From positions 13,634-77,633 of the forward strand of contig CAWCDA010000057.1 of the NCBI GenBank assembly GCA_963794065.1: DNA of 64,000 nt. The letters are read 5' to 3'. Made by a program: the position numbers and the translations under genes. Shown piece by piece: positions 44,146 to 63,186 of this stretch; the stretch's first letter is position 1; the number at the start of each line of letters is the position of its first letter. Under the pieces are notes generated by a model. It saw only the letters and a list, made by a program, of their open reading frames with translations. It made no database searches and was not told the origin of the DNA. This DNA is from an uncultured Actinomycetes bacterium (GTDB lineage Bacteria; Actinomycetota; UBA4738; HRBIN12).

Positions 44146-45333
44146 GTGGGAGCGAACGGTGCAGCAGCGCCGGAGCGGGGGGTCGAGTCGGTCGAGGCCC
44201 TGATCGGGCACGACGTCGTCACGGAACCGACGGCGCCGCCCGCGTGGACGCGGGCCGAGGCCACCGCCGCCAAGCGCGCGTCGCTGCGGGCCTACCTCGG
44301 GGCGGCGCCCGGCGTCGGCAAGACCTACGCGATGCTGTCCGAGGGCCGGCGTCGCGCCGATCGCGGGACGCGCGTCGTCGTCGGCTGCGTCGAGACGTAC
44401 GGCCGTCCGCGCACGGTCGACATGCTGCAGGGGCTCGAGCAGGTCCCGCCTCGCGCCGTGTCGTACCGGGACGTCGTGTTCGACGAGCTCGACGTGGACG
44501 CGGTCCGCGCCCGCGAGCCAGAGGTTGCACTGATCGACGAGCTCGCCCACACGAACGTGCCGGGAGCGGGGCGCGCCAAGCGATGGGAGGACGTGGTCGA
44601 TCTCCTCGCCGCTGGCATCGAGGTGATCACGACCGTCAACATCCAGCACCTGGCGAGCCTCAACGACGTGGTCGCGGATGTCACCGGCGTGCGACAGCGC
44701 GAGACGGTCCCCGATTGGATGATCGAGCTTGCAGATCAGATCGAGCTCGTCGACATGTCCCCGTACGCGCTGCGGCGCCGGATGCTGCACGGCAACGTCT
44801 ATCCCGACCCTGCGAAGGCTGAGATCGCCTTGCAGCGGTACTTCACCACCGACAACCTCACCGCCCTGCGCGAGTTGGCGCTTATGCGGGTCGCGAACCA
44901 GGTCGATGAGACCTTGCTCTCCCGCTGGGCAACGGGCCGCGCCCTCGAGACGCGGGAGCGCGTGCTGGTCTGTGTCTCGAACCGCGGCTTCGCGGACGAT
45001 CTCGTGCGGCGCGGCGCGCGGATCGCACAGCGCGCACGGGGGGATCTCCTGGTGGTGCACGTGCGCGAGCGCACGGACGCCGACACGTCGGCGTGGCTGC
45101 TCGAGCTGGCCCAGCTCGTCGCCGACGTCGGTGGCGAGTTCCATGTGATCGACGACGACGATGCGGTCAGCGGCGTCCTGCATTTCGCCTATGCGCAGTT
45201 CGTCACGCAGCTCGTGGTGGGGGAGTCGTTGCGGTCGCGCGTCCGGGAGCTGCTGCGCGGCTCGTTCGTGAACGAGTTGATCCGCACGGCCGAGGCGATC
45301 GACATCCACGTCATCGCGCGACGCGAGCGCTGA
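44146..45333 (+). CDS. kdpD: free-standing KdpD N-terminal sensor domain + Usp domain protein (no membrane or kinase part)
   Basis: ORF 44146..45333. Walker-A-like GAAPGVGKTYAML, then VVGCVETYGR, IDELAHTN, TTVNIQHLASLNDVV and LTALRELALMRVA follow the N-terminal 380 aa of E. coli KdpD closely. The protein ends after the Usp-like block. Confidence 0.85.
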   Translation: MGANGAAAPERGVESVEALIGHDVVTEPTAPPAWTRAEATAAKRASLRAYLGAAPGVGKTYAMLSEGRRRADRGTRVVVGCVETYGRPRTVDMLQGLEQVPPRAVSYRDVVFDELDVDAVRAREPEVALIDELAHTNVPGAGRAKRWEDVVDLLAAGIEVITTVNIQHLASLNDVVADVTGVRQRETVPDWMIELADQIELVDMSPYALRRRMLHGNVYPDPAKAEIALQRYFTTDNLTALRELALMRVANQVDETLLSRWATGRALETRERVLVCVSNRGFADDLVRRGARIAQRARGDLLVVHVRERTDADTSAWLLELAQLVADVGGEFHVIDDDDAVSGVLHFAYAQFVTQLVVGESLRSRVRELLRGSFVNELIRTAEAIDIHVIARRER

Positions 45334-45643
45334 TCCCGCGCGTTCGAAGCGATCGCTCGATCCGCCGGGCCTCCCGACGGCCGCACGCCAAGAGCACGCG
45401 GTCCCGCGCCGCCACGCTCTCGACGCCGTCGGCCGCCGTGCTCGCCAGGATCGCGTCGAAGACGATCGCACGCTCGCGCGCCAACGCGAGGGCTTCGTCG
45501 ACGACGAGCTGCTGGGTCTCGGTCAGCGGCCAGCCGAGCGCGATCACCACCAGGGCGATCGAGCCGTCCACGTCGTCGGGGAACAGCTGCGTCGGTTCCC
45601 GTACCGTTCGTCCGAGAACGAGCACCGTGCGTTGCAGTGCCAT
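45311..45643 (-). CDS. hypothetical 110-aa protein translationally coupled to kdpC
   Basis: ATG at 45643 lies 2 nt after the kdpC stop (TGACCATG). Third-position GC is high throughout. Sequence MALQRTVLVLGRTVREPTQLFPDDVDGSIALVVIALGW.... It appears in the track only as the tail of ORF 45311..46057. Confidence 0.55.
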   Translation of the reverse strand: MALQRTVLVLGRTVREPTQLFPDDVDGSIALVVIALGWPLTETQQLVVDEALALARERAIVFDAILASTAADGVESVAARDRVLLACGRREARRIERSLRTRGISARVAR

Positions 45644-45645
45644 GG

Positions 45646-46233
45646 TCACGTTCGTGGCGCCACCTCCTCCAACGCGACGTTCAGTTCGAGGACATTGACC
45701 CGTGGCTCGCCGAAGACACCGAGGGTCGGCTCCTGCGTGTGCTGGTCGATCAACGTCTCGACCTCCTCGATCGGGAGGCCCCGGTTCGCCGCGATCCGGG
45801 GCGCCTGGAACCGGGCGGCCTCCACCGAGATGTGCGGGTCGAGCCCGCTCGCCGAGGTGGTGAGGAGGTCGGCCGGGATCGTGGCGGCCGTGAGGTCGGG
45901 CACGTACGGCGATTCGAGGGCGACGATGGCCGCGGCGCGCTGCTCGATGTCGTCGGCGAGTTGCCTGGACCGCGGCCCCAGGTTCGACCCGCCGGAGGTG
46001 GACGCGTCGTCCTCGACGGCAGACGGCCGCCCGTAGAACCAGGACGGACCGTCCCACTGTTGGCCGATCAGCGAGCTGCCGACGGGCTGCCCGTCGACGT
46101 CGACGAGTGATCCGTCCGCTCGATCGGAGAACGCCGCCTGTGCGACGGCGGTCATCACCAGCGGGTATGCCAGGCCGGTCAGCGCGGCCAGCAGCAGGGT
46201 GGCGACGACGGCGCGAACGATCGTCCGGATCAC
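45646..46233 (-). CDS. kdpC: K+-transporting ATPase subunit C
   Basis: ORF 45646..46233. Motifs [24 protein letters not shown] and ASGLDPHIS. Confidence 0.9.
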
Positions 46234-48290
46234 GGGAAGTGCACCGCCCCGAGGATCATGTCGATCAGCTTGATCCCGACGAAGGGCACGATGAGCCCGC
46301 CGAGACCGTAGATCAGCAGGTTGCGGCGCAACAGGCCCTCGGCGCCCAGCGGGCGATAGCGAACGCCCCGCAGCGCGAGCGGCACCAGCAGCACGATGAT
46401 CAACGCGTTGAAGATGACCGCCGAGAGGATCGCCGATTCCGGCGAGGTGAGGTGCATCACGTTGAGCTGATCCAGCGCGGGGTACGTCGCGACGAACATC
46501 GCCGGGATGATCGCGAAGTACTTCGCCACGTCGTTCGCGATCGAGAAGGTCGTGAGCGCGCCGCGGGTGATCAGGAGCTGCTTGCCGATCTCGACGATGT
46601 CCATCAGCTTGGTGGGGTTCGAGTCGAGGTCGACCATGTTGCCGGCCTCCTTCGCAGCGGTGGTGCCGGTGTTCATCGCAACCCCGACATCGGCCTGCGC
46701 CAACGCAGGAGCGTCGTTCGTGCCGTCGCCCGTCATCGCGACGAGCACCCCGCCCTCCTGCTCCTTCTTGATCAGCGCCATCTTCGTTTCCGGCGTCGCC
46801 TCCGCAAGGAAGTCGTCGACGCCGGACTCCTGGGCGATCGCGGCCGCGGTCAGCGGGTTGTCGCCGGTGATCATGATCGTGCGGATGCCCATCGTCCGCA
46901 GCTGCCCGAACCGCTCGGCAAGTCCGTCCTTGACGATGTCCTTGAGCTCGACGACCCCCATGGCCACGCGATCCCTGGCCACCGCCAGCGGCGTGCCGCC
47001 GGCTGTGGCGATCCGCTCCACCGCGTCGGACAACTCGGCGGGCAGCTCGGATCCGGACCAGGCGGCGACCGCATCCACGGCGCCCTTGCGGATCTCGACG
47101 CCCTCCAGATCGACGCCGCTCATCCTCGTCTGCGCGGTGAACGGCACGAAGCGCGCGTGCGTTTCCAACAACTCGTGTTCACGTAGGTTGAACCGCTCCT
47201 TCGCGAGCACGACGATCGAGCGCCCCTCCGGTGTTTCGTCGGCGAGCGATGCCATCTGCGCGACCTCGGCCAGCTCGCGCTCCTCGACGCCCGGAGCGGG
47301 GATGAACGCGACGGCGTGACGGTTGCCGAGCGTGATCGTGCCGGTCTTGTCGAGCAGCAGCGTGGAGACGTCGCCCGCGGCCTCGACGGCGCGCCCGCTC
47401 ATCGCCAACACGTTGCGCTGGACGAGCCGGTCCATCCCCGCGATCCCGATCGCCGACAGCAATCCGCCGATCGTGGTGGGGATCAAACAGACGAACAGCG
47501 CGATCAGCACCGCGTCGCTGACCCGGCCACCCGCGTAGATCGCGAACGGCTGCAGCGCCACCACCACGATCAAGAAGATGATCGTGAACTTCGTCAGCAG
47601 CAGCGACAGCGCGATCTCGTTCGGGGTCTTCTGGCGCTCGGCGCCCTCGACGAGGCGGATCATCCGATCGATGAAGCCCTCGCCCGGTTCGACGGCGATC
47701 CGGATCTTGACCCAATCCGACAGGACCTTCGTGCCCCCGGTCACGGCGGAGCGGTCGCCGCCAGATTCGCGGATCACCGGGGCCGACTCGCCGGTGATCG
47801 CCGACTCGTCCACCGATGCGATGCCCTCGACGACCTCCCCGTCACCGGGGATCAGCTCCCCGGCCGACACCATGACGACGTCATCGCGCCGGAGGTCCGA
47901 GGCGGAGACGAGCTCCTCACCGACGCCGTCGGTGAGCCGGCGCGCGACGAGGTCCGCCCGCGTCTTGCGCAACGACTCGGCCTGCGCCTTGCCTCGGCCC
48001 TCGGCCATCGCCTCGGCGAAGTTCGCGAACAGGACCGTGAACCACAGTCCGAGGGCGATCGCGGTGTCGAACGCGATCGGTCCTCCCTTCGTCGCGTCGA
48101 CGACCAGACGGATCGTGACGACGGCCGACACGACTTCCACGACGAAGATCACGGGGTTCCGGACGAGGGTGCGCGGGTCGAGCTTGCGAACGCTGTCCAC
48201 GATCGCGGTCTGCACGATCGCGTGGTCGAACAGCGGCCGGGCGCGAACGGTCGGTGTGCTCTCCACCTGCGGGGGCGCCGCGATCGCCAT
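46230..48290 (-). CDS. kdpB: K+-transporting P-type ATPase subunit B
   Basis: MAIAAPPQ starts at 48290 inside ORF 46230..49805. Motifs [20 protein letters not shown] and ITGDN. The start shares one nucleotide with the kdpA stop (TGATG). Confidence 0.95.
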
Positions 48291-49957
48291 CAGGTCAGCC
48301 CTCCCTGCAGGTGCTCGACGATCGGACCGAGCGCCAGCGCCGGTAGGAACGTCAACGCGCCGATGATCACGATGACGCCGGTCAGCAGCCCGGCGAACAG
48401 TCCGGTGTCGGTGCGCAGCGTGCCCGCCGTGAACGGCACGGTCCGTTCGCGCCCGACGCTCGCGCCGAGGGCGAGGGCCGCCAGGAGCGGGACGAAGCGG
48501 GCCACGAGCATCGCGATCCCGCCGGTGATCGTGTAGAAGGGCGAGCTCGCGGTCAGCCCGGCGAACGCTGAGCCGTTGTTGTTCCCCATCGACAGGTAGC
48601 CGTACAGGATCTCGCTGAACCCCTGGGGCCCCGTGTTGAGCCGACCCGCGAGCCCGGCCGGCAGCACCACCGCCAACGCCGCGAAGGCGAGCACCACCAA
48701 GAACGGCACCAGGATCGCGATCACGACGATCTTCACCTGCCGGGCCGCGATCTTCTTCCCGAGGTATTCGGGGGTGCGGCCCACCATGAGACCACCGATG
48801 AAAACGGCGATGACGACGTAGAAGAGCATCCCGTAGAGGCCGCTGCCGACCCCGCCGAACACGACCTCGCCGATCCCCATGTTGAACATCGGCGCGAGCC
48901 CTCCGAGCGCCTGATAGGAGTCGTGCATCGAGTTCACTGAGCCGTTGGACGCGGCCGTGGTCGCGACCGCCCACAGGGCCGATGCGTCCGTGCCGATGCG
49001 GACCTCCTTGCCCTCGAGGTTCGGGGCGGCGGCCGAGATGCCGGCCGCCTGCATCGCGGGGGTGGCGACCCGCTCGCCCGGCACGGTGATCGCGAGCCCG
49101 GCGATCAGCAGGATCCACATGGCGGCGAACAACACCCAGCCCTGGCGGACGTTGCCGACCCACTTGCCGAACGTGTATGTGAGTCCCGACGCGATCCACA
49201 GGATCGCGAACAGCTCCAGGATGTTCGACAGCGGCGTCGGGTTCTCGAACGGATGCGCCGAGTTCGCGCTGAAGAATCCCCCGCCGTTCGTGCCGAGCTG
49301 CTTGATCGCCAGCTGGCTGGCGACGGGGCCGCGCGCGATCAGCTGGGAGAACCCTTGCAGCCCCGTGACCTGCTGTGACTCGGCGAGCGTCTGCACCACG
49401 CCCTGGCTCATCAGCACGATCGCGAACAGCACCGAGAGCGGTAACAGGAGGTAGAGAACCCCCCGGATCAGATCGCGCCAGAAGTTGCCGACATGGTCCG
49501 TCCCGGTGCGGGTGAACCCGCGGATCAGCGCGACCAGCACGGCGACCCCGACAGCGGCGGACACGAAGTTCTGGAACGTGAGCGCCACCATCTGCGTGAA
49601 GTAGCTCATGGTCGTCTCGCCGCCGTAGGCCTGCCAATTGGTGTTGGTCATGAAGCTGGCGGCCGTGTTGAAGGCGAGATACGGGTTCACGCCCGGGAGT
49701 TGCTCCGGGTTGAGGGGCAGGTGCAGCTGGGTCCGCAGGATCACGAACACGAAGGCCATGCTGACCGCGCTGAACCACAGCAGCGAGCCCGCATACCGGC
49801 CCCACGACTGTTCCGCGTTCGGGTTCACGCCGAGCACCCGATAGCAGAGCCCTTCGAGTCTGCCGACCCGTTCGCGCGAGTAGATCCGGTACATGTACGC
49901 GCCCAGCGGCGGCGTCAGCAGGATCAGCACCAGGAGGAAGACGGCGATCGTCGCCAT
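48290..49957 (-). CDS. kdpA: K+-transporting ATPase subunit A
   Basis: [14 protein letters not shown] starts at 49957 inside ORF 48290..50080. Motifs [17 protein letters not shown] and NNGSAFAG. Confidence 0.95.
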
Positions 49958-50046
49958 CAGAACCGCTCCGGGTGGATCAAGACGTAGACGAGATACACGA
50001 GCAGGGCGGCGCTGACACCCAGCTCGAGGACATCCGCGATGCTCAT
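49957..50046 (-). CDS. kdpF: K+-transporting ATPase subunit F (29 aa)
   Basis: Below the ORF-track length cutoff. Hand translation gives [29 protein letters not shown]. Its stop overlaps the kdpA ATG (TGATG). Single TM helix, and the HPERF end resembles known KdpF termini. Confidence 0.75.
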
Positions 50047-50126
50047 ATCCGGTCGAACCAGCGGACGAGCGCGAACGCAAGCGCGAAGAAGCCGACCGTG
50101 ATGGCGATGACCCAGACGTCCCACAT
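50043..50126 (-). CDS. 27-aa hydrophobic micropeptide upstream of kdpF
   Basis: Hand translation gives [33 protein letters not shown] sits 8 nt upstream of the ATG at 50126. Its stop overlaps the kdpF ATG (ATGA). Confidence 0.5.
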   Translation of the reverse strand: MWDVWVIAITVGFFALAFALVRWFDRI

Positions 50127-50173
50127 GGTTCTCACCTCCTGGGACGACCGTAGCCTTCGGACATTGGGCGAAC

Positions 50174-50213
50174 GTGAGGAACCCCGACCCTCGACCTACG
50201 GGTTCCGTAAAGA
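50174..50213 (+). promoter_or_regulatory. candidate response-regulator half-sites in the kdp / HK1 divergent region
   Basis: CGTGAGGA at 50173-50180 and CGTAAAGA at 50206-50213, spaced 33 bp (3 x 11). They flank a GGAACCC-N15-GGGTTCC inverted repeat (50178-50206). Confidence 0.3.
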
Positions 50214-50272
50214 GTGGGCGCGCGGCGTCCCTGCGGTGCAGACGCGAGAACCGGCTTGGCTATCCTTCGACC

Positions 50273-51757
50273 ATGGGCTCCGCCACCACGTTCGAGCTGC
50301 TTCGGTCGCCCGCCGGTATCCGGCGACGGTCGATCGGGTACCTCATCGCGGTCCTCGGGCCGGTGCTGGTCGTCGCGATCATGTTGCCGTGGCGAGATCG
50401 GATCGAGCCGCTGACGATCGGCTTCGCGTTCCTCGTGGTGGTGGTCGTCGCCGCGGCGGTCGGACGGCTCGGCCCCGGCGTCCTCGCCTCGCTCGTCTCA
50501 TTTCTGGCGTTCAACTTCTTCTTCCTGCCGCCCTACGACACGTTCGTGATCGCGCGCGCGGAGCATGTCGTCGCGTTGTTCGTGTTCCTCGGGCTGTCGA
50601 TCCTGATCTCGTTGCTGTACGCGCGGGCGGTCGAGCGCGCGGACGCCGCCGAGGCTAAGGAGCGCGAGTTGCGGACCCTGCAGGAGCTCAGCCGCGACCT
50701 CGTCGTGCGCGGACCGGGAGAGGATGCCTACCGGGAGCTGTTGGCCGACGTGGTCGCGCGTTTCGCGTTCGACGCGGGAGCCTTGTTCGTCACGGATGCA
50801 ACCGCCGGGCTCCAGGAACGGGTCGTCGTGGGGGCGCCGATGGGCGCGATCTCGCCCTCGTGGAACCCCGCCGACCCCGGGCGGGCCCCGGAGCGCCTGC
50901 CGCTGTCGGTCGGGGCGCGCACCCTCGGGTTGATCGTGCTGACCGGCCAGCGTCCTGCACTGGACGGCTCGGAGGTGCGGGTCCTCCGGGCGGTGTGCGA
51001 TCAACTCGCGCTCGTGTTGGAGCGAGATCGGCTGCTGCGGAAGGCCACCGATACGGAGATCCTCAAACAGACGGAGACGGCTCGACGCAACGTGCTGGCG
51101 GCGGTCTCGCACGACCTCCGCAGCCCCCTGGCCGCGATCAAGGCCTCGGTGACGGATCTCCTCGATCCCGAGGTGGTCCGCTCTGACGCGGATCGAGGCG
51201 CGGTCTTGCTCGCGGTGGACCACGAAACGGATCGGCTCGATGCGCTCGTCGCGAACCTCCTGGACATGTCGCGCATCGAGGCGGGCGTGCTCCAGGCCCG
51301 CCCGGAGACGGTCGATCTCGCCGACGCGGTGACCGGGGAGGTGGACGCCGCGTCCGTTCGATGGCCGGCGGTGCGGATCGAGCCGTCGTTCTCGGCAGGC
51401 GACACCACGGCGCGGGCCGATCCGGTGCTCCTGTTGCGCGTGCTTTCCAACTTGCTTGATAACGCCGCCCGGGCGGCGGAGCGTGGCGGCGACGGGCCCG
51501 TGGCGGTCGAGGTCGCGCCGCAGGGCGACCGGGTGGCGGTCCGCGTCGTCGATCACGGCGCCGGCCTCGACGCCGCCGCTCGCAGACAGTTGTTCCTGCC
51601 GTTCGCCCGCCTCGATGAGCGCGAAACGACGCGCGGGCCCGGGCTCGGCCTCGCGATCGCGAAGGGGTTCCTCGATCTGATGGACGGACAGCTGTGGCTG
51701 GAGGACACGCCCGGGGGCGGCGCGACGTTCGTCTTCTCGTTGCCGGTGGCGACATGA
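50273..51757 (+). CDS. KdpD-type sensor histidine kinase lacking the N-terminal KdpD/Usp domains (DUF4118 + linker + HisKA + HATPase_c), paralog 1
   Basis: ATG at 50273 inside ORF 50174..51757. Four TM helices including FLAFNFFFLPPYDTF, an H-box AAVSHDLRSPLAAI, and the G-boxes. Confidence 0.85.
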   Translation: MGSATTFELLRSPAGIRRRSIGYLIAVLGPVLVVAIMLPWRDRIEPLTIGFAFLVVVVVAAAVGRLGPGVLASLVSFLAFNFFFLPPYDTFVIARAEHVVALFVFLGLSILISLLYARAVERADAAEAKERELRTLQELSRDLVVRGPGEDAYRELLADVVARFAFDAGALFVTDATAGLQERVVVGAPMGAISPSWNPADPGRAPERLPLSVGARTLGLIVLTGQRPALDGSEVRVLRAVCDQLALVLERDRLLRKATDTEILKQTETARRNVLAAVSHDLRSPLAAIKASVTDLLDPEVVRSDADRGAVLLAVDHETDRLDALVANLLDMSRIEAGVLQARPETVDLADAVTGEVDAASVRWPAVRIEPSFSAGDTTARADPVLLLRVLSNLLDNAARAAERGGDGPVAVEVAPQGDRVAVRVVDHGAGLDAAARRQLFLPFARLDERETTRGPGLGLAIAKGFLDLMDGQLWLEDTPGGGATFVFSLPVAT

Positions 51758-52446
51758 CGAGGATCCTCGTGGTCGACGACGAGCCGCAGATCCGCCTGGC
51801 GGTCGAACGGTCGTTGCTGGCCCGTGGCTACGATGTGCAGGTGGCCGGCGATGGCGCCGAGGCCCTCGATCTGGCGGCCGCGCGGCTGCCCGATCTCGTC
51901 ATCCTCGACCTCAACATGCCTGTGATGGATGGTCTCGAGTGCTGTCGACGGCTCCGGACGTGGACGGCTGTGCCCATCCTCGTGCTGTCGGTGCGCGAAG
52001 ACGAGCCGGACAAGATCGCGGCGCTCGATCTCGGCGCGGACGACTACCTGACCAAGCCCTTCGGCACCGGCGAGCTGCTGGCGCGCGTTCGCGCGCTGCT
52101 GCGTCGGGGCGAGGGCGCCGGGGCTCGTCCCTCGTTGTACCAACTCGACGGTGTCACGATCGATGTCGCGGCGCACCGCGTGACACGCCGCGACGAGGAC
52201 GTGCATCTCACGCGGACAGAGTGGGGATTGTTGGAGGCCTTCACCGCCCAGTCGGGGAAGCTGCTGACGCACCGATGGCTGCTCGAACAAGTGTGGGGCG
52301 ACACGTACGGCGAGGACGTCGAGGTGCTCCGCGTGTTCGTGAGCCAGCTCCGGCACAAGGTTGAGCCCGATCCGCGACGTCCCCGCGCGATCGTCACGGA
52401 GCCCGGCATCGGATACCGCTGGAACCTCCGCCCCGTCGACGGCTGA
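51754..52446 (+). CDS. kdpE: KdpE-like OmpR-family response regulator, paralog 1
   Basis: ATG at 51754 overlaps the kinase stop (ATGA). Motifs ILVVDDEPQIR, DDYLTKPF and EPGIGYRW. Confidence 0.9.
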   Translation: MTRILVVDDEPQIRLAVERSLLARGYDVQVAGDGAEALDLAAARLPDLVILDLNMPVMDGLECCRRLRTWTAVPILVLSVREDEPDKIAALDLGADDYLTKPFGTGELLARVRALLRRGEGAGARPSLYQLDGVTIDVAAHRVTRRDEDVHLTRTEWGLLEAFTAQSGKLLTHRWLLEQVWGDTYGEDVEVLRVFVSQLRHKVEPDPRRPRAIVTEPGIGYRWNLRPVDG

Positions 52447-54919: not shown

Positions 54920-54929
54920 GACGGCTATC

Positions 54930-56345
54930 GTGACCACCGTGGACCATGCCGCCGTGCCGACGACCGAGCGACTAGGTGTCGCCGTACCCGGGTGGCGGGT
55001 GCCGGCGGCCTACGTGATCGCTACGGTCGGGGCCGGTGCGCTGGCGGCCGTCATGCTGCCGATCCGCGACGATCTGACGCACACGATCGAGGCGTTCTTG
55101 TTCTTGGTGCCCGTCGTGGCCGCCTCGTGGCTGGGCGGTGTGTGGCCCGGCGTGGTGGCCGCGATCGTTTCCTCTGCCTTGTTCAACGTCGGCTTCCTGC
55201 CACCGTACGGAACATTCGATCTCGAGCGGCCCGAGTACCTCGGCGCATTCCTGGGATTCCTCGCGCTGTCGCTCGTGATCTCGTGGCTCGTCGGTGTGGC
55301 GCGGGAGCGAGCGAGCGCGGCCGAGGATCGGGAAGCCGAGGTCCGCCTGCTGTTCGACCTCAGTCACGTGCTGGTGTCCGAGCGCGCGGAAGGGCTGACG
55401 CCCGCGCTCGCGCGCGCCGCGGAGCGGCTCGGGTTCGTCATGGCGACGGTGCGGGACCCGGACGACGTTGAACGTGGCGGGCTCGACATCCCTTTGCGGG
55501 TTGGCGAGGCCTCGTTCGGATCACTCGTCTTCGTGGGTACGCGGCCCCCGCTAACGACCGCCGAGACGCGGGTCGTGCGCACCTTCGCCGACGAGGTGGC
55601 CCTTGTCGTGGCGGGCGATCGCCTGACGGCCGAGCTCCGAGAGGCGGAGCTGTATCGCGCCACGGAGGACATGCGCCGCTCCCTGCTTGCCGCCGCCTCG
55701 CACGAGCTGAAGAGCCCGGTGGCGGCCATCACGGCGTCGGTCACGGACGTGCTCGGCCGCGATCACCTCGATCTCGACGTCGTGCGTGAGGTCCTGGAAG
55801 ACGTCCGGGCGTCCACGAGCCGCCTCGAGCAGCTGATCACGAACCTGCTGGATATGTCGCGGATCGAATCGGGCACACTGGTCGCCCGGCGCGAAACGGT
55901 GTACCTCGACGATCTCATCGGGCCCGCCGTCGACGGTGTCCGGGGGCGATGGCCCGGCGTCGATATCAGCGTCGACATCGCCGAGGATGCCGACCGCGTC
56001 CGAGGCGATGCGTTGTTCGTCGAGCGCATCGTCACCAACCTGGTCGAGAACGCGGCTCGAGCGGTCCGCGGTGCCGCGGATAGAAGGATCGAGCTTCGCG
56101 GCTCGCGTGAGGGGGATACGGTCGTGCTCCTCGTGGTCGATCATGGTCCCGGGCTCAACTTCGGCGACCACACGCTGCTGTTCACGCCGTTCTACCGCCT
56201 GCAGGAGGGGTCCCCACGGCTGGGCGCCGGGCTCGGGCTGGCGATCTGCAAGGGCTTCACGCTCGCGATGGACGGAGAGATCTGGGCCACGGACACGCCG
56301 GGGGGCGGCGCGACGTTCGGCGTGCGGATCCCGGCCGCCTCATGA
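54930..56345 (+). CDS. KdpD-type sensor histidine kinase lacking the KdpD/Usp domains, paralog 2
   Basis: ORF 54930..56345. DUF4118-like TM block (ALFNVGFLPPYGTF) and H-box AAASHELKSPVAAI. Confidence 0.85.
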   Translation: MTTVDHAAVPTTERLGVAVPGWRVPAAYVIATVGAGALAAVMLPIRDDLTHTIEAFLFLVPVVAASWLGGVWPGVVAAIVSSALFNVGFLPPYGTFDLERPEYLGAFLGFLALSLVISWLVGVARERASAAEDREAEVRLLFDLSHVLVSERAEGLTPALARAAERLGFVMATVRDPDDVERGGLDIPLRVGEASFGSLVFVGTRPPLTTAETRVVRTFADEVALVVAGDRLTAELREAELYRATEDMRRSLLAAASHELKSPVAAITASVTDVLGRDHLDLDVVREVLEDVRASTSRLEQLITNLLDMSRIESGTLVARRETVYLDDLIGPAVDGVRGRWPGVDISVDIAEDADRVRGDALFVERIVTNLVENAARAVRGAADRRIELRGSREGDTVVLLVVDHGPGLNFGDHTLLFTPFYRLQEGSPRLGAGLGLAICKGFTLAMDGEIWATDTPGGGATFGVRIPAAS

Positions 56346-57034
56346 GCGGCCCGGTGGTGCTGGTCGTCGACGACGAGCCACAGATCCTGCGTGCGGTCGA
56401 GCGCACACTTTCGGCTCGGGGTTTCGTTGTGCACACGGCAAGCGACGGGCGGTCGGCCGTCGGCGCCGTGGCCGATGACCCGCCGGATCTCGTGGTGCTC
56501 GATCTGAACCTGCCGCACCTCGACGGGCTGACGGCGTGCCGGGAGATCCGCCGCTCGAGCCGCGTGCCGATCCTCGTGCTGTCCGTGCGCGACGCGGAGG
56601 AGGACAAGGTCGCGGCGTTGGACCTGGGGGCAGACGACTATCTGACGAAGCCGTTCGGAGCGGCGGAGCTGCTGGCACGCGTCCGCGCGCTGCTGCGCCG
56701 GGCCGCCCCCGGGCCGACGGGAACGCGGTTCGTGGCCGGCGACCTCACCGTCGACGTCTCCGCGCGCGCCGTGACGCGCGGCGGCCTCGACGTGCATCTG
56801 ACGCCGACCGAGTGGCGGTTGCTGGAAGCGCTCGCCGGGGCGCCGGGGGTGCTCCGGACCCACGACTGGCTGCTCGGTCACGTCTGGAGCGAGGGCGGGG
56901 CCCCCGACGTGGAGGCGCTCCGGGTGTTCGTGAGCCAGCTCCGCGCCAAGCTCGAGGCGGATCCGAGACGCCCGCAGGTGATCGCGACCGAGCCCGGCGT
57001 CGGGTACCGCTGGCAGCTCGAGCCGCCCGGCTAG
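56342..57034 (+). CDS. KdpE-like OmpR-family response regulator, paralog 2
   Basis: ORF 56342..57034, with ATGA overlap onto HK2. Motifs VLVVDDEPQILR, DDYLTKPF and EPGVGYRW. Confidence 0.9.
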   Translation: MSGPVVLVVDDEPQILRAVERTLSARGFVVHTASDGRSAVGAVADDPPDLVVLDLNLPHLDGLTACREIRRSSRVPILVLSVRDAEEDKVAALDLGADDYLTKPFGAAELLARVRALLRRAAPGPTGTRFVAGDLTVDVSARAVTRGGLDVHLTPTEWRLLEALAGAPGVLRTHDWLLGHVWSEGGAPDVEALRVFVSQLRAKLEADPRRPQVIATEPGVGYRWQLEPPG

Positions 57035-57035
57035 G

Positions 57036-57701
57036 TCAGTCTCCGACGATCGTTGCGCGCAACGCGTGCTCCGCGCCGGCGCCCGCCAGCGCGACGAGCT
57101 CGTCGCCGGCGCCGAACACTGTCTCCGGCTGCGGGATGACCACGTGGCCGTCCCGCAGGATCGCGACGATCGCGGAGTCTTTCGGCATCCGCAGTTCGTA
57201 GAGCGGCCGACCGGCTGCGGGGGAGTCGGCCTCGAGCTTCATCTCGACGATCGAGATGCGCCCGCCCTCCAGCCGGAGCAGCTGGACCAGGTCGCCGGAC
57301 GTGACAGCCTCCTCCACCATCGAGGTCAGCATGTGCGGGGGAGACACGGCGGTGTCGACGCCCCATTGGTCGGTGAACAGCCACTCGTTCTTCGGGTGGT
57401 TGACGCGTGCGAGCACGCGCGGGACCGCGAACTCTTGCTTGGCGAGCAGCGCCGTCACCAGGTTGTCTTCGTCGTCGCCCGTCGCGGCGACGACCACGTC
57501 GGTGTGCACGAGGTCGGCGTCGTCGAGCACCCAGGGCTCGCAGGCGTCGCCGAGCATGACGCTCACCTCCGGGATCTCCTGACGGAGGTCGTCGACGGTG
57601 GCGCGGTCCTGCTCGATCAGCGTGACCTCGTGGCCGCGGACGACGAGATCGGCCGCAACGTGCCGTCCGATCGCGCCCCCGCCGGTGACCAAGACCTTCA
57701 T
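57036..57701 (-). CDS. trkA: TrkA/RCK K+ transport regulatory subunit (RCK_N + RCK_C)
   Basis: MKVLVTGGGAIGRHVA starts at 57701 inside ORF 57036..58004. The start shares a nucleotide with the upstream trkA stop. Confidence 0.9.
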   Translation of the reverse strand: MKVLVTGGGAIGRHVAADLVVRGHEVTLIEQDRATVDDLRQEIPEVSVMLGDACEPWVLDDADLVHTDVVVAATGDDEDNLVTALLAKQEFAVPRVLARVNHPKNEWLFTDQWGVDTAVSPPHMLTSMVEEAVTSGDLVQLLRLEGGRISIVEMKLEADSPAAGRPLYELRMPKDSAIVAILRDGHVVIPQPETVFGAGDELVALAGAGAEHALRATIVGD

Positions 57702-58363
57702 CAGTGGTGCTCCCCCGCCGCCTCGAGCGAGGCGTCCAACTCGTCCATATAGTCCTTGCCCATCATCACGATCAGGAAGTCTCCCTCCTGCATCGTGGAG
57801 TCGGCGGCGGGCACGAAGCCCTTGCCGCCGCGAGAGATGCCGGCGACCAAGATGTGTCCGTCGACGTTGAGCGAGGAGACCGGCTTGCCCACCAGATGGC
57901 TCGGAACGGGGACGCGCACGCGTAAGAGCTCCCCTCCGCCCAGGCTCTCGCGCACCTCCTTGCCGGTGTGCAGCAACATCAGCTGCACCTGCTTGACCCC
58001 CCACGTCGTCGTTGCGACGGTCGGGATGTTCAGCCGCTCATAGATCTCCGCGCGGCGAGGATCGAAGATGCGCGCGATCACCTTGGGCACGTGATAGTGC
58101 TCGAGCGCGACCCGTGCCGACACGATGTTGGAGTTGTCTCCACTCGAGACCGCGATGAAGGCGTCGGCGTCGCGGATGCCCGCCTCCTCCAACACATCGC
58201 GATCGAAGCCCAGGCCGACGATCCGTCGCGCGTGCTCTCCGGGGGGATAGCGGTCGAACGCGTCCTCGCGCTTGTCGATCACGGTGACGTCGTGGCCGGC
58301 CTCGCCGAGCGCGTGTGACAACTCGGACCCGACACGACCGCATCCCATGATCAAGACCCGCAT
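57701..58363 (-). CDS. trkA: TrkA/RCK K+ transport regulatory subunit (RCK_N + RCK_C)
   Basis: ORF 57701..58363 with MRVLIMGCGRVGSELS (GxGxxG). Confidence 0.9.
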   Translation of the reverse strand: MRVLIMGCGRVGSELSHALGEAGHDVTVIDKREDAFDRYPPGEHARRIVGLGFDRDVLEEAGIRDADAFIAVSSGDNSNIVSARVALEHYHVPKVIARIFDPRRAEIYERLNIPTVATTTWGVKQVQLMLLHTGKEVRESLGGGELLRVRVPVPSHLVGKPVSSLNVDGHILVAGISRGGKGFVPAADSTMQEGDFLIVMMGKDYMDELDASLEAAGEHH

Positions 58364-58433
58364 CGGCGCACAGGGTACAAGTCCGGTCCCGAGGTGACAG
58401 GGAGCGTGGCCCGGGAACGGACCCCAGATATGC

Positions 58434-58472
58434 CTGAGGGCCGACAGCTGGAGGGAGCTGCCGGCCCCTCAG
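58434..58472. other. strong imperfect hairpin (15 bp stem, GGAGGG loop) in the long trkA / HK3 intergenic region
   Basis: CTGAGGGCCGACAGCT-GGAGGG-AGCTGCCGGCCCCTCAG pairs as 7+3+5 bp with one bulge and one mismatch. No U-tract on either strand. Confidence 0.5.
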
Positions 58473-58590
58473 ACGGGCTCGGAGGAAAGTGGTGTGTGGT
58501 GCTCCTTCCCGCTTGCCCGCCGTCGGGGGTGACATCCCTTCGCCGGTCGTGCGAGAACCTCTTTCCATGTGCAAGCGTCGTCCTCTCGGC

Positions 58591-58640
58591 GTGAGGGCGG
58601 CGTGAAGGATGCCGGGCGCCGCGTGAAGAACTCGTGAAGG
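58591..58640 (+). repeat. four direct CGTGA(A/G)G(G/A) heptamer repeats at 11/21/11-bp spacing, candidate KdpE-like regulator boxes
   Basis: GTGAGGG 58591-97, GTGAAGG 58602-08, GTGAAGA 58623-29 and GTGAAGG 58634-40. They lie 41-90 nt upstream of the HK3 start. Confidence 0.45.
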
Positions 58641-58680
58641 CCCTTTCGGCGTTGGATCGGCCTCGGCGCGGCGGTAGCGT

Positions 58681-60129
58681 GTGCGCGTGGCCACCGAGCG
58701 CAGGGATTCCCGCATCGAACGGATCTCGTGGCGGGCGGTCCTCATCGGGCTGGTGGCCGTCGCATGTGCTGCCCTGCTTGCGCTCTTGACCAGAGAGCTG
58801 GGGCCAGGCTCGTCGACGGCGATCTTCATGCTGGCCGTCACGATGGCCGCGGTTAGCGGCGGGATCTGGGCCGGGGTGGTCGCCGCTTTGCTCGCCTCGA
58901 TGATCTCTCCGGTGATCGAGCATCCCGACCTCGGGCTGCAGTTCGAACAGCTGCGCGACGTCATCGCCGCGGTCGTGTTCCTCGCGATCGCGGCGGTGGT
59001 CGGCCTGGTCGTGGGCAACGCCGCCGTCGAGCGACGGCGTGCGACCGAGCGCGAGCGGGAGGCCAGGCTCTTGGCCTTCCTCTCGACCAAACTGTTGTCG
59101 GGGGATGTGCCGGACCGGGTGCTCGACGAGTTCGTCGACGTCCTGCTCGTGCCCTTCGGGCTCGCCTCGTGCACCGTCCAGGTCACGCTCGACGGTCAGC
59201 CGATGTCCGCGACGGCGACCCGCGAGGGTCTCGAGCCCGGTGGACCGACCGAGCTCGTGCCGGTCGTGGTCGCGTCGATCCCGCTTGGCACGCTTTCGGC
59301 CGAACGGCCCGTGCGCGGTCGTCCGTTCACGAAGCGCGAACGTGAGCTGCTCGAGGCCGCGACCCGTCAAGCCGCCGTCGCGTTGGACCGGGCCCGGTTG
59401 GACGCCCGCGCGCGGCTCGCGCAGCTCGACGCCGAGACGAACCAGCTGCGCGCGGCGATGTTCTCCTCGGTCACCCACGACCTGCGCACGCCGCTCGCGT
59501 CGATCAAGGCCGGCGTGACGAGCCTGCTCGATCAGTCGACGACGCTTGGGGTGGAGCGGGAGCGGGATCTGCTGCTCACGATCCTGGAGGAGACCGACCG
59601 GTTGAACCGCCTGGTAGGCAACATCCTGGATCTCGCGCGGATCCGAGCGGGCGCGCTCATCCCTCGGCAGGTGCCGACCTCGGTGGACGAGGTCGCCGAA
59701 GTGGTGGTGGCGCGGATGCGCGCTCGCCTCGGCTCGGTCCGGCTTGAGCTCGCGATCGCACCCGACCTCCCCGAGATCGCTGCCGACCCGGTGCAGCTGG
59801 ACCAGGTGCTGACGAACCTGCTGGAGAACGCCGCCCGACACTCCCCGAGCGGTGGCATCGTGCGCGTCCACGTCGGCCTTGCGGAGCACGGCGTCCGGGT
59901 CCGCGTCAGCGACGAGGGCCCCGGGATCCCTCCGGAGCAACGGGAGAAGGTCTTCGAAGCCTTCTATCGTGGCCGCGAAGAGCCGGAGCGTCCGGGGAGC
60001 GGCCTCGGGCTCGCGATCGCTCGCGCGATCGTGACGGCGCACGGTGGACGCATCTGGGTCGAGGAGACGACGGGCGGCGGCGCCGCGGTGGTGTTCGATC
60101 TGCCGATCGAGGAGGAGGTGGAGGCGTGA
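58681..60129 (+). CDS. KdpD-type sensor histidine kinase lacking the KdpD/Usp domains, paralog 3
   Basis: ORF 58681..60129 (alternative GTG at 58687). Four TM helices and H-box SSVTHDLRTPLASI. Confidence 0.85.
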   Translation: MRVATERRDSRIERISWRAVLIGLVAVACAALLALLTRELGPGSSTAIFMLAVTMAAVSGGIWAGVVAALLASMISPVIEHPDLGLQFEQLRDVIAAVVFLAIAAVVGLVVGNAAVERRRATEREREARLLAFLSTKLLSGDVPDRVLDEFVDVLLVPFGLASCTVQVTLDGQPMSATATREGLEPGGPTELVPVVVASIPLGTLSAERPVRGRPFTKRERELLEAATRQAAVALDRARLDARARLAQLDAETNQLRAAMFSSVTHDLRTPLASIKAGVTSLLDQSTTLGVERERDLLLTILEETDRLNRLVGNILDLARIRAGALIPRQVPTSVDEVAEVVVARMRARLGSVRLELAIAPDLPEIAADPVQLDQVLTNLLENAARHSPSGGIVRVHVGLAEHGVRVRVSDEGPGIPPEQREKVFEAFYRGREEPERPGSGLGLAIARAIVTAHGGRIWVEETTGGGAAVVFDLPIEEEVEA

Positions 60130-60809
60130 AGGTGCTGGTTGTCGACGACGAACCGCAGATCCGTCGCGCCCTGCGCACGACCCTCGAGGCCCACGGGTAC
60201 GTCGTGGAAACGGTCGGCACCGGGGACGAAGGAGTCGTCGCGGCCGCGGGGCAGCCTCCCGAACTGATCCTGCTGGACCTCGGCCTGCCGGACATGGACG
60301 GGACCGAGGTGATCCGGCGGGTCCGGGCCTTCTCCGAGGTGCCGATCATCGTGCTGTCCGTGCGGGAGAGCCAGACGGACAAGGTCGCCGCGCTCGACGC
60401 GGGCGCCGACGATTACGTCACGAAGCCGTTCGGCATGGAGGAGCTGCTGGCACGGTCCCGGGCGGCGCTCCGCCGCCGAGGCACCGAGGAGCCAACGGTC
60501 CCGGTGCTCGCCTTCGGTGATCTGCAGGTGGATCTCGCTCGCCGCCTGGTGACGAGCGAGGAGGAGCAGGTACGTCTGACGCCGACCGAATATGGCCTCC
60601 TCGAGGCGTTCGTGACCAATCCGGGGAAGCTGCTTACCCACCAGTGGCTCCTGCGGCGTGTTTGGGGACAGGGGTACGGCACCGAGACCACGTACCTGCG
60701 CACCTACGTCCGGGCGCTCCGCAAGAAACTCGGCGACGACGCATCGGCTCCCGCGCTGATCGTGACCGAGCCGGGGGTCGGGTATCGATGGATCGCGGAG
60801 CCGAGCTGA
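60126..60809 (+). CDS. KdpE-like OmpR-family response regulator, paralog 3
   Basis: ORF 60126..60809, with GTGA overlap onto HK3. Motifs VLVVDDEPQIRR, DDYVTKPF and EPGVGYRW. Confidence 0.9.
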   Translation: MKVLVVDDEPQIRRALRTTLEAHGYVVETVGTGDEGVVAAAGQPPELILLDLGLPDMDGTEVIRRVRAFSEVPIIVLSVRESQTDKVAALDAGADDYVTKPFGMEELLARSRAALRRRGTEEPTVPVLAFGDLQVDLARRLVTSEEEQVRLTPTEYGLLEAFVTNPGKLLTHQWLLRRVWGQGYGTETTYLRTYVRALRKKLGDDASAPALIVTEPGVGYRWIAEPS

Positions 60810-60843
60810 CGCTCTCGGCCGTCGTCACAGGCCGTAGCATCTG

Positions 60844-63186
60844 GTGCCGATGAGCAGCGCATCGAAGGGATCGACGGGCTCGGTCGCCAAGCGGGTCCTG
60901 GTGGGTCGGGCGTTCAACAGCGCGAACCTCGAGCACACGCTGTTGCCGAAGGTGCTCGCCCTGCCCGTCTTCGCCTCCGACGCCCTGTCCTCGGTCGCAT
61001 ACGCCTCGGGCGAGATCTTGCTCGCACTGACGCTGGCCACCACCACGCCGACGAAGTACGTGATGCCGATCTCCTTCGCGATCGCCGCCCTGATGGCGAT
61101 CGTGGTGAGCTCCTACCGCCAGACCGTTCGCGCCTATCCCGGTGGCGGTGGCGCCTACATCGTCAGCAAGGAGAACCTGGGCGTGTTCGCCGGCCTGGTC
61201 GCCGCCGCCGCCCTGCTCTTCGACTACATGATGACGGTCGTCGTGTCGATCGTGGCGGGGGTGTTCGCGATCGGGTCCGCGTTCCCGTGGGCGAACGAGC
61301 ACAAGGTCCTCCTCTCGCTGACCTTCGTCGGTCTGATCACCTTGGCGAACCTTCGCGGCACGAAGGAATCGGGGACGCTCTTCGCGATCCCGACCTACGG
61401 CTTCGTGGTGTCGATCCTCGTGTTGATCAGCGTCGGCGTCGTCAAGTGCCTCAACGGGTGCCCGACCGTGGTGCCGTCGCCCCACCAGGTCGAGACGGCG
61501 ACGGCGGTGGCGGGGATCACGATCTTCGCCCTGCTCAAGGCGTTCTCGCAGGGCGCCACGGCCCTGACGGGGGTCGAGGCCATCTCCAACGGCGTCCCGG
61601 CTTTCAAGCGCCCGCAGGCGAGGAACGCCGCGGCGACCCTGGCGATCATGGGCACGATCGCCGTGACGATGTTCCTGGGCATCTCGTATCTGGTGACCCA
61701 CGTGCACGGCGTGGTCGCCAGCGAGGAGCAGTCCGCGGTCGCGCAGGTGGCCAACGCGGTCTTCGGCGGCAGTTCGCTCGGTTTCTACATCGTGCAGACG
61801 TTCACCGCCCTGATCCTCATCCTCGCGGCGAACACGGCCTACCAGGACTTTCCGCGGCTCGCCTCGATCCTCGGCCGCGATCGCTACATGCCGAGCCAGT
61901 TCGTGAACCGCGGCGATCGCCTCGTCTTCTCCAACGGCGTCATCGTGCTGGGCCTGTTGTCGGCGCTGATGATCTACGTCTTCGACGCGAGCCTCGACAG
62001 GCTGATCCATTTCTACGTGGTGGGAGTGTTCACCTCGTTCACCTTGTCGCAGAGCGGGATGGTCCGCCACTGGATCCTGGAGGGGCGCAAGGGCGAGAAC
62101 GCGATGAAAGGCTGGCGACGCTCGATCGTGATCAACATCATCGGCGCGGTCACGACGTTCGTCGTGCTGATCGTCGTGATCGCGTCGAAGTTCAAGGACG
62201 GGGCGTGGCTCTCGATCCTGATCATGGCGCTTCTCGTGCCGGTGTTTTATGCGATCCACCGTCACTACATGTGGGTGCGATCGGTCGTCCATCGCGGGGT
62301 CGAGCGTGTCGGCGTCGTCGGGACCAATCACATCGTGCTGCTCGTGCGCGAGATCGACCCGTCGGTCGCCGAGGCGCTGGGCTATGTCCGGTCTCTACGG
62401 CCGGAGTCGCTGCACGCGATCACCCCCGGCGAGACCGTCGATCCTGATCTCGCACGGCGATGGAGCGACTTCGCCGGCCGCCAGACGCCCGCGCTGACCC
62501 CGATCGGCGCCGGCAGCCTCACCGCCGGTGTGCGCCGGTTCGTGGCCTCCCTCGACCTGACGCCCCACGACGTCGTCACCGTGGTGGTGCCCGAGATGGT
62601 CGGCGACCATCTGACGAGTCACGTCGTGCACACGAAGGACCTCGTGCGTCTCAAGGCGGCGATGCTCGGCATCCCGCACGTCGTCGTCACCGATGTCCCC
62701 GTCGTGAGCACGCACGAGGGGCCGCGCGGCGTGGACGCCAAGCCGCTGATCCCGCATCGCACCGTCGCCCTCGTGTTCGTGTCGGGGGTGAACGACCTCA
62801 CGATCCGCGCGGTGAACTACGCGAAGTCGCTCGATGCCAGCGTCACCCGCGCGATCTACTTCGACCTGGACCCGGAGCAGGCGCACCGTCTCGAAACCGC
62901 GTGGTTCGACGCTGCCCTCGAGATTCCGCTCGACATCGTGGAGGCGCCGTTCCGCGACCTCACCGGGCCGATGCTGGAGGAGGTGCGGCGCTACTCGTCC
63001 GACCCGGGCACGGTCGTCGACGTGATCGTGCCCGAGGTGATCGTGTCGCATTGGTGGCAGCTGCCCTTGCACAACCAGAACGCCTTGTTCATCAAGCGCC
63101 TGTTCCTGTTCGAGGATCGTGTCGTCCTGACCAGCGTGCCCATGCTCGTCAAGGGGACCCCCAAGCGCGAGACCGAGACGGTCTGA
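60844..63186 (+). CDS. KimA-like APC-superfamily K+ importer with tandemly duplicated C-terminal cytoplasmic domain (780 aa)
   Basis: ORF 60844..63186. Blocks ASDALSSVAYASGEIL, YRQTVRAYPGGGGAYIVSKENLG, LLKAFSQGATALTGVEAISNGVPAFKRPQARNAA, LAANTAYQDFPRL, GDRLVFSNGV and YVVGVFTSFTLSQSGM track my recollection of B. subtilis KimA (YdaO) closely. Confidence 0.8.
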   Translation: MPMSSASKGSTGSVAKRVLVGRAFNSANLEHTLLPKVLALPVFASDALSSVAYASGEILLALTLATTTPTKYVMPISFAIAALMAIVVSSYRQTVRAYPGGGGAYIVSKENLGVFAGLVAAAALLFDYMMTVVVSIVAGVFAIGSAFPWANEHKVLLSLTFVGLITLANLRGTKESGTLFAIPTYGFVVSILVLISVGVVKCLNGCPTVVPSPHQVETATAVAGITIFALLKAFSQGATALTGVEAISNGVPAFKRPQARNAAATLAIMGTIAVTMFLGISYLVTHVHGVVASEEQSAVAQVANAVFGGSSLGFYIVQTFTALILILAANTAYQDFPRLASILGRDRYMPSQFVNRGDRLVFSNGVIVLGLLSALMIYVFDASLDRLIHFYVVGVFTSFTLSQSGMVRHWILEGRKGENAMKGWRRSIVINIIGAVTTFVVLIVVIASKFKDGAWLSILIMALLVPVFYAIHRHYMWVRSVVHRGVERVGVVGTNHIVLLVREIDPSVAEALGYVRSLRPESLHAITPGETVDPDLARRWSDFAGRQTPALTPIGAGSLTAGVRRFVASLDLTPHDVVTVVVPEMVGDHLTSHVVHTKDLVRLKAAMLGIPHVVVTDVPVVSTHEGPRGVDAKPLIPHRTVALVFVSGVNDLTIRAVNYAKSLDASVTRAIYFDLDPEQAHRLETAWFDAALEIPLDIVEAPFRDLTGPMLEEVRRYSSDPGTVVDVIVPEVIVSHWWQLPLHNQNALFIKRLFLFEDRVVLTSVPMLVKGTPKRETETV

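Follow-up and report, generated by a model that had tools for sequence, protein, structure and literature searches.

In Escherichia coli, a single KdpD/KdpE pair lies beside kdpFABC. The kinase KdpD carries its N-terminal KdpD/Usp region in the same polypeptide as a core of four transmembrane (TM) helices, HisKA and HATPase_c, and the OmpR-family regulator KdpE binds 6-bp direct repeats (TTTATA/TTTACA) of 11-bp period through contacts made by R193, R200 and T215. A split form, in which a KdpD/Usp serine-kinase chain encoded near kdp is separate from a TM/GAF/DHpCA histidine-kinase chain, has been described in Alicyclobacillus acidocaldarius, Deinococcus and Anabaena and is frequent in Acidobacteriota and Chloroflexota; the histidine-kinase chains retain the domains that sense K+ in E. 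coli, and KdpD was demonstrated to act as a serine kinase inactivating KdpB for the E. coli and Deinococcus proteins (PMC11018627). Actinomycetota are not named in the text of that paper. Here we analysed a window of 64,000 nucleotides (nt), by which we mean the whole stretch of DNA studied, from an uncultured soil bacterium of the Actinomycetes (assembly GCA_963794065.1, contig CAWCDA010000057.1; G+C about 69%), in which positions 44146-63186 form an island of K+ uptake genes. What is special in this island is that extra Kdp-type kinase/regulator pairs are joined to genes for KimA-like K+ permeases, an arrangement which suggests that the control exerted by Kdp-type signalling may reach beyond the Kdp pump.

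An earlier note on this DNA had located in the island kdpFABC, two KimA-like genes, tandem trkA genes and three operons each encoding a histidine kinase (HK) plus a response regulator (RR). Translations and profile searches placed all of these genes at, or a few bases from, the positions that it had given, and confirmed both their families and their orientations. Pair 1 (HK1, 50273-51757; RR1, 51754-52446), pair 2 (HK2, 54930-56345; RR2, 56342-57034) and pair 3 (HK3, 58681-60129; RR3, 60126-60809) are all on the + strand, and within each pair the two genes overlap by 4 nt (ATGA, ATGA and GTGA, respectively). The start of HK2 may be the GTG at 54939 instead of 54930, judging from a conserved -10-like hexamer.

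All three kinases start right at a DUF4118 membrane block of four hydrophobic helices, as the earlier note had observed, followed by HisKA and HATPase_c, all above the Pfam cut-offs. NCBIfam KdpD (PRK10490) was the top family for each of them, with scores of 162, 171 and 190 bits that are far under the equivalog cut-off of 1123; HK1 aligned to positions 397-883 of the model (E = 2e-47), and the match of HK3 was mainly over the kinase core. Alignment revealed a deletion of about 25 residues in the GAF-like region of HK2. The N-terminal KdpD domain (PF02702) is not in any of the three polypeptides, which sets them apart from E. coli KdpD, and was found only in the gene at 44146-45333. The three regulators, which combine Response_reg and Trans_reg_C, all begin with the (I/V)LVVDDEPQI that had been reported for them. 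Their description as KdpE-like applies best to RR1 and RR3, whose top NCBIfam family was KdpE (229 and 241 bits, under the equivalog cut-off of 325); RR2, an OmpR-family protein, scored 192 bits for KdpE and 195 bits for MtrA, effectively a tie and likewise under the KdpE cut-off. The best Protein Data Bank (PDB) match of RR3 was E. coli KdpE (4e-63, against 7e-45 for MtrA). RR1-RR3 all carry R193, R200 and T215, through which KdpE contacts DNA; the recognition helices of RR1 and RR2 are nearly identical, and the residues that follow the phospho-accepting histidine are almost identical across the three kinases. A comparison of specificity residues indicated that the helix after this histidine is conserved family-wide among the short kinases, with only 5 high-entropy columns in the DHp domain, and it says nothing on insulation. 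An exact-sequence look-up of RR2 gave no match.

To trace the origin of the pairs, 1.84 billion representative proteins were searched with a profile built from the three kinases. The top 150 matches were mostly short kinases, with homology to the KdpD N-terminus in only 24. In a neighbour-joining tree of 135 sequences with 100 bootstraps, HK1, HK2 and three short representatives formed one clade in 100 of 100 replicates, adjoining a group that holds 11 of the 14 full-length KdpD representatives, while HK3 always fell in a split without any protein bearing the N-terminal KdpD domain. HK1 and HK2 are 44% identical, and the identities between regulators (RR1-RR2 61%, RR1-RR3 52%) agree with the kinase tree. 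On this phylogeny HK1 and HK2 are sister paralogs derived from one duplication and HK3 is a member of an older, separate clade of short kinases. The module is thus not a triplication, contrary to the earlier note: HK2 groups with HK1 next to most full-length KdpD, and HK3 stands in a clade apart.

The kdp operon lies on the - strand, with kdpF (49957-50046, 29 amino acids (aa); Pfam Potass_KdpF, 8e-09), kdpA (48290-49957; KdpA, 1.3e-227), kdpB, the P-type ATPase subunit (46230-48290; E1-E2_ATPase and Hydrolase), and kdpC (45646-46233; KdpC, 1e-68), and it is divergent from HK1 and RR1. On the other side of kdpC the + strand gene at 44146-45333 encodes a stand-alone KdpD N-terminal domain followed by Usp, an 'ASK chain' (Pfam KdpD, 6.5e-85, plus Usp). 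Its translation contains GAAPGVGKT (Walker A, G-X5-GKT) and a DE Walker B motif, carries Y as the adenine-binding residue where W39 is expected, and scored 359 bits against NCBIfam KdpD_non_kinase (cut-off 550). The KdpB translation reads ITGESAPV, so that the TGES motif with its regulatory serine is retained. Judging from these sequences, KdpD here is split and not truncated: the serine-kinase half is the gene at 44146-45333, which lies inside the interval of the earlier note and went unmentioned there, and the histidine-kinase half is HK1. By analogy the KdpD/Usp chain is probably the serine kinase for KdpB. The island shares with the described split systems the separate Walker-motif KdpD/Usp protein near kdp, a chain of the TM/GAF/DHpCA type (HK1, in which GAF is a weak match; with RR1, divergent from kdpFABC) and the TGES motif of KdpB. 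It differs from them in that the serine-kinase gene is convergent with kdpC and not read through from the pump operon, and in that the kinase chain has two more paralogs, tied to other transporters. A 27-aa open reading frame (ORF) for a hydrophobic peptide (50043-50126, - strand) stands first in the kdp operon; it has its own Shine-Dalgarno sequence, its stop overlaps the kdpF start (ATGA), it gave no Pfam match, and a 40-aa gene was called at the corresponding position in one related locus (L021).

The two large APC permeases were correctly recognised by the earlier note as KimA-like and not as amino-acid transporters. KimA-like 2 (60844-63186, + strand; its start may be the ATG at 60850) matched Bacillus subtilis KimA (PDB 6s3k) with E = 1.3e-123 over residues 16-478 and 627-764, which cover the membrane and cytosolic domains, and KimA-like 1 (52456-54880, - strand, frameshifted in this assembly) was likewise recognised as a KimA homolog, with its frame repaired. 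The two are 34% identical, and both conserve the residues aligned to KimA E233 and Y377, which are named in the literature, as well as those aligned to D36, Y43, D117, T121 and T230, which we take to belong to the K+ site or to coupling. Homology that extends through the full transmembrane domain and the C-terminal domain identifies the permeases as true KimA homologs and not generic amino-acid permeases. B. subtilis KimA has one cytosolic domain, whereas the island proteins are of 780-810 aa with the domain doubled. In KimA-like 2 the cytosolic C-terminal domain is tandemly repeated (residues ~480-625 and ~627-778; 28% identity, E = 5e-8), and its relatives are of 750-890 aa. KimA-type symporters of Firmicutes are controlled by c-di-AMP, both via a riboswitch and by direct binding. 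The B. subtilis gene has such a riboswitch, whereas the island KimA-like genes are without one and adjoin a two-component system and trkA instead: no c-di-AMP (ydaO) riboswitch was detected, with no Rfam family reaching its gathering score in the whole window. Riboswitch control was dropped when a permissive Rfam search of the trkA/HK3 spacer (58300-58720) gave only chance-level matches.

Two genes for RCK proteins with TrkA_N and TrkA_C domains, trkA2 (57036-57701) and trkA1 (57701-58363), lie on the - strand between RR2 and HK3. The earlier note had counted them as a separate, RCK-gated K+ route. Neither TrkH nor KtrB turned up among the proteins that were examined in the 30-64 kb part of the window, and Pfam-annotated gene tables and homology screens of related loci yielded neither, which argues against a separate uptake route; trkA-trkA is linked to KimA-like genes throughout actinomycetes, and the two TrkA proteins probably serve the KimA-like transporters as accessories.

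A survey of gene neighbourhoods, as the earlier note had proposed, revealed the full three-pair layout in four independent assemblies of uncultured Actinomycetota (the window, L001, L002 and L021), and since L001, L002 and L021 share the gene order the layout is not due to chance or misassembly. The closest genomes are metagenome-assembled genomes of uncultured Actinomycetes, with HK2 identities of 95% (L001) and 87% (L002). A scan of a genome collection with HK2 recovered only these two close relatives, the other matches being generic kinases outside any K+ gene neighbourhood. For HK3, more than 120 homologs reach at least 61% identity; nearly all are of about 480 aa, and all those with an organism name come from uncultured Actinomycetota genomes; cluster look-ups for cultured members returned metagenome entries only. 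Most of the related loci examined show an HK3-type pair together with KimA-like and trkA genes, a linkage that persists across deep divergence, and in a metagenome sample a KimA-like gene lay beside a strong HK3-like kinase in 7 of 9 loci. The arrangements vary. In L024 a pyrophosphatase gene, an OB gene and trkA-trkA face HK3-RR3-KimA, with the regulator stop overlapping the KimA start, and L022 shows the same layout with kdp and a KdpD/Usp gene nearby. Two pairs flank trkA-trkA in L020 and on the P0132 contig; KimA is divergent from a kinase/regulator pair in L025 and L026; and in L029, L031 and L032 a co-directional Kim1-trkA1-trkA2 unit faces HK3-RR3-Kim2. Because in L024 the OB gene directly precedes trkA-trkA, the segment 44146-57034 of the window looks like an accreted block. 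The position-2 kinase of L020 is HK3-type (45% identity to HK3, 28-30% to HK1 and HK2) and that of the P0132 contig falls in the HK3 clade, so different lineages filled the slot beside KimA-like 1 independently. One locus (L031, 8217-12864) has two tandem Kim2-like genes after RR3 and a Kim1-like gene on the other side, so that three KimA-type genes surround one pair. Divergence along the island is mosaic: relative to L001, trkA, HK3, RR3 and Kim2 are 97-99% identical and kdpA, kdpC and HK1 73-79%, while relative to L002 the pattern is reversed (kdpA 94%, Kim2 78%). This suggests recombination between lineages inside the island.

Cultured actinomycetes carry parts of this arrangement. In Streptomyces sp. 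BHT-5-2, kdpA to kdpC, a full-length KdpD of 855 aa, KdpE, trkA-trkA and a KimA-like gene lie within 16 kb; in Nonomuraea gerenzanensis a KimA-like gene and trkA-trkA face each other, and the surrounding 9 kb contain no two-component system; and a KimA-like gene on a Streptomyces plasmid (H1) has neither a two-component system nor trkA adjacent. In S. venezuelae the KimA-like gene Vnz_27465 adjoins the RCK gene Vnz_27460, and KimA-like genes and this RCK neighbour have been listed for Streptomyces without being studied. The ceoB/ceoC genes of Mycobacterium tuberculosis, with Rv2690c, presumably form a trkA-trkA and KimA-like unit as well. A K+ supercluster is therefore ordinary for actinomycetes. 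The cultured representatives lack CGTRARG pairs and have either a single full-length KdpDE or no two-component system next to these genes, whereas in the island clade trkA and KimA are separated by an inserted kinase/regulator pair and additional pairs have joined, two of the three pairs adjoining KimA-like and trkA genes and not kdp. The earlier note knew of no system like this one. That view stands for the extra pairs joined to KimA, as no paper was found on a two-component system tied to KimA or on multiple KdpDE-like pairs in one K+ island; it does not extend to the split KdpD, which is known, or to the supercluster itself, which is present in Streptomyces sp. BHT-5-2. A literature search on the function of Rv2690c and on SCO5873-5876 found nothing relevant.

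Repeats resembling KdpE half-sites (CGTRARG, in an 11-bp register) were identified upstream of every kinase operon. The heptamer occurs 15 times in 43.7-63.3 kb (19.6 kb), and seven of the 15, all on the + strand, lie within about 515 nt upstream of the three operons. Between the kdp operon and HK1 there are two boxes, CGTGAGG (50173) and CGTAAAG (50206), spanning 50173-50212; the window, L001, L002 and L021 all keep both boxes at this distance of about 33 nt, and the kdp/HK1 intergenic region of L032 has a pair of 7-bp boxes 4 bp apart (7-4-7) and a third box. The KimA-like 1/HK2 spacer is of about 50 nt and contains one 7-4-7 pair, GATAAGG-GAAC-CGTAAGG (54901-54918), kept in the window, L001 and L021, with only the CGTAAGG box retained in L002. 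Upstream of HK3 lies a four-box array, CGTGAGG-4-CGTGAAG-14-CGTGAAG-4-CGTGAAG (58590-58639, spacing 11/21/11), whose two pairs have no equal in the 64-kb window, no other pair matching at 13 or more of the 14 positions. The array is kept upstream of HK3-type operons in 12 loci, the most distant of which have a kinase of about 43% identity, with spacers of varying length. In L029, L031 and L032 box pairs stand immediately upstream of both HK3 and the Kim1-trkA unit, and loci of the HK3 clade use both the G and the A box variants found at the HK1 and HK2 promoters. The likeness to E. coli thus extends from the kinase core and the regulator contact residues to direct half-sites of 11-bp period with a TTYAC core, the boxes reading CYTYACG on the - strand. 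The HK3-clade pair of L027 is preceded by other direct repeats (GTGTCA, 11-bp period; 9850-10015), which suggests that operator specificity has shifted within the clade.

The boxes are associated with -10-like hexamers. Five TANNNT hexamers stand 3-9 nt before start codons: TATCCT (50261-50266) for HK1, TAGCGT (54886-54891) for KimA-like 1, TATCGT (54926-54931) for HK2, TAGCGT (58668-58673) for HK3 and TAGCAT (60834-60839) for KimA-like 2. In the KimA-like 1/HK2 spacer the box pair is flanked at 9 and 7 nt by the back-to-back TAGCGT and TATCGT, which stand 5-7 nt before the start codons, and across loci a distance of 6-9 nt separates the 7-4-7 pairs from TANNNT hexamers, which in turn precede start codons by 5-8 nt. 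A conserved TAnnCT hexamer is found 8 nt ahead of the trkA1 ATG. The hexamer before KimA-like 2 matches that before KimA genes in Streptomyces and Nonomuraea. These positions suggest that most island genes are transcribed as leaderless or near-leaderless mRNAs, with promoters and starts predicted from the sequence. At PhoB pho-box promoters two 7-bp direct repeats 4 bp apart lie a few bases upstream of the -10 element and replace the -35 element; the 7-4-7 geometry of the predicted promoters here resembles this arrangement, while the half-site sequence and the regulator subfamily differ.

Between trkA1 and the four-box array lies a conserved element (58425-58568) that looks like a putative structured RNA read from the - strand. 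Folding of this strand gave -67.9 kcal/mol (z = -3.46, reached by 0 of 200 shuffles), and folding of the + strand z = -0.28. The consensus of six genomes contains 41 pairs, 7 of them with compensatory changes, and exposes C-rich motifs (GUCACCCCC, UUUCCUCCGA and the loop CCCUCC). The element occurs in a single copy per locus, is confined to loci in which trkA faces HK3, and gave no Rfam match; in 5 genomes a GAnnCT hexamer lies exactly 10 nt leftward of box 1. Two other explanations of the spacer were considered and discarded. An intrinsic terminator at the hairpin 58433-58472 was ruled out since a U-tract is missing after the hairpin on both strands, and a small protein was ruled out since indels among relatives disrupt every frame.

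The island stands in a wider cation-handling block (35117-44117), with genes for a Na/Ca-type exchanger (35117-36478), NhaA (39292-40647), an H+-translocating pyrophosphatase (41486-43750, + strand; Pfam H_PPase, 1.9e-254) and a small OB-fold protein (43758-44117, + strand; Pfam tRNA_anti-codon, 1.3e-05, under the curated cut-off), an order that is repeated in L024. The pyrophosphatase belongs to the syntenic context of the island: its gene adjoins trkA or KimA-like genes in L022, L024, L025, L026, L029 and L031. Its motif GNSTKAITKG presumably marks a K+-independent type. A gene of 119 aa stands at the position of the OB-fold gene in L022 and L024.

The reading that we favour, at a probability of roughly 0.55, builds on the observed gene identities, synteny, phylogeny and conserved repeat arrays and sees here a K+ uptake island with a split KdpD, a duplicated kdp-linked pair and an older HK3/RR3 pair, which would control the neighbouring transporters. 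The ancestral core would have been trkA-trkA beside a gene for a KimA-type K+/H+ symporter, with kdpABC and one full-length kdpDE alongside in Streptomyces. Three changes may then have led to the present island. KdpD was split, the KdpD/Usp chain probably phosphorylating the TGES serine of KdpB and thereby shutting the pump off; HK3/RR3, of the older family, came to lie just upstream of KimA-like 2, with trkA-trkA as its divergent neighbour; and HK1/RR1 was duplicated, the copy HK2/RR2 settling beside KimA-like 1. In the mechanism that we propose, the K+ signal, the binding of the regulators, the promoter positions and the assignment of targets are all predictions. Each kinase would sense K+ availability via its KdpD-type membrane and cytoplasmic core and phosphorylate its own regulator, a dimer of which would bind the CGTRARG direct repeats 11 bp apart in the divergent promoter region and activate its own operon and the neighbouring transporters. 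RR1 would thus act on kdpFABC, RR2 on KimA-like 1, and RR3 on HK3-RR3-KimA-like 2 and possibly on a leftward transcript toward trkA; in relatives HK3/RR3 may also drive the Kim1-trkA unit.

Several points weigh against this proposal. K+ as the signal is assumed from homology, and the matches of the kinases to GAF, GAF_2 and GAF_3 (17-21 bits) are all under the Pfam cut-offs. In the E. coli sense (TTYAC) the boxes point to the - strand genes, inverted relative to the HK operons just downstream, and about 225 nt separate the four-box array from the start of trkA1. KimA-like 2 may be independent of the HK3 promoter, as it keeps an ancestral TAGCAT -10-like element of its own downstream of RR3. 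L027, although a member of the HK3 clade, has no K+ gene nearby. Compared with L001, L002 and L021, KimA-like 1 carries an inserted nt near 54379 that shifts its frame, and a one-base deletion restores a protein of 807 aa; since related assemblies are frameshifted at other sites (L002 in its KimA-like 1 and HK1 genes), an assembly error is likely and a sequencing error plausible, though the gene may instead be a real pseudogene. The boxes and the DNA-contact residues, almost the same for all three regulators, argue against a strictly dedicated wiring and make cross-regulation plausible.

This last point leads to a different explanation, in which the three pairs form one integrated regulon. The kinases would sense different inputs (for instance K+ outside the cell, K+ inside it or ionic strength, turgor, or pH), the regulators would share the CGTRARG boxes, and through cross-phosphorylation or shared operators every K+ gene of the island would answer to the summed signals. 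The single box consensus upstream of all three operons fits this well, as do the use of G and A variants of the HK1 and HK2 promoters by HK3-clade loci, the invariant R193, R200 and T215 with the nearly identical helices of RR1 and RR2, and the likeness of the three kinases after the phospho-accepting histidine; in the literature Caulobacter KdpE is also phosphorylated by a non-cognate kinase. The DHp domain is conserved across the whole family, however, so that likeness in it says little on insulation, and every pair forms an operon with translational coupling next to one particular transporter. In most of the related loci examined an HK3-type pair accompanies KimA-like and trkA genes, including loci that lack kdp and its pair. 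We consider an integrated regulon unlikely, though it is the rival that deserves most attention.

It is more improbable still that HK2/RR2 and HK3/RR3 do not sense K+ but respond to another cue such as Na+, pH or osmolarity, or use KimA-like or TrkA proteins as co-sensors of flux. All three kinases retain the DUF4118 four-helix block and the architecture of the K+-sensing half of KdpD, and the HK chains of split KdpD contain the K+-sensing domains of E. coli (PMC11018627). Against these features stand the position of HK3 outside the group that holds most full-length KdpD, its profile match mainly over the kinase core, the loss of about 25 residues from the GAF-like region of HK2, and the setting of the island among genes for NhaA, a Ca2+/cation exchanger and an H+-pyrophosphatase; the tight linkage to KimA-like and trkA genes is also of note, given that other kinases use cognate transporters as co-sensors. 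That the synteny is inherited without any regulatory link, the pairs controlling genes elsewhere and the repeats serving autoregulation only, we hold to be very improbable. KimA-like 2 does have its own conserved -10-like element, cultured actinomycetes do have trkA-trkA and KimA without an adjacent extra pair, and the pair of L027 does stand apart from K+ genes. Yet the regulator stop overlaps the KimA start in L024, KdpD-type pairs have been recruited beside KimA genes repeatedly and independently, and box pairs lie directly upstream of both the Kim1-trkA unit and HK3 in L029, L031 and L032.

Beyond the favoured reading of the island as a set of pairs acting on their neighbouring transporters, a broader proposal is offered tentatively and at somewhat less than even odds. 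The short KdpD-C-type kinases and their KdpE-type regulators may constitute an unrecognised Actinomycetota family dedicated to KimA/KUP-type symporters and their TrkA (RCK) partners, with members of this family or kdp-linked duplicates recruited repeatedly and independently beside KimA, and with an RR3-type regulator also driving the leftward structured RNA (58425-58568) with its C-rich loops. If this is true, Kdp-type K+ signalling governs the whole K+ uptake repertoire and not only the Kdp pump, and the RNA adds post-transcriptional control. The island gives the testable proposal that KimA-like genes may be under the control of Kdp-type two-component systems that have defined operator arrays, and that the RCK pair may belong to the KimA-like transporter. 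Three related kinase/regulator pairs in one locus are a useful case for insulation versus cross-wiring after duplication, and the one-pair island in cultured Streptomyces makes control of trkA and a KimA-like gene by KdpDE directly testable in a model organism.

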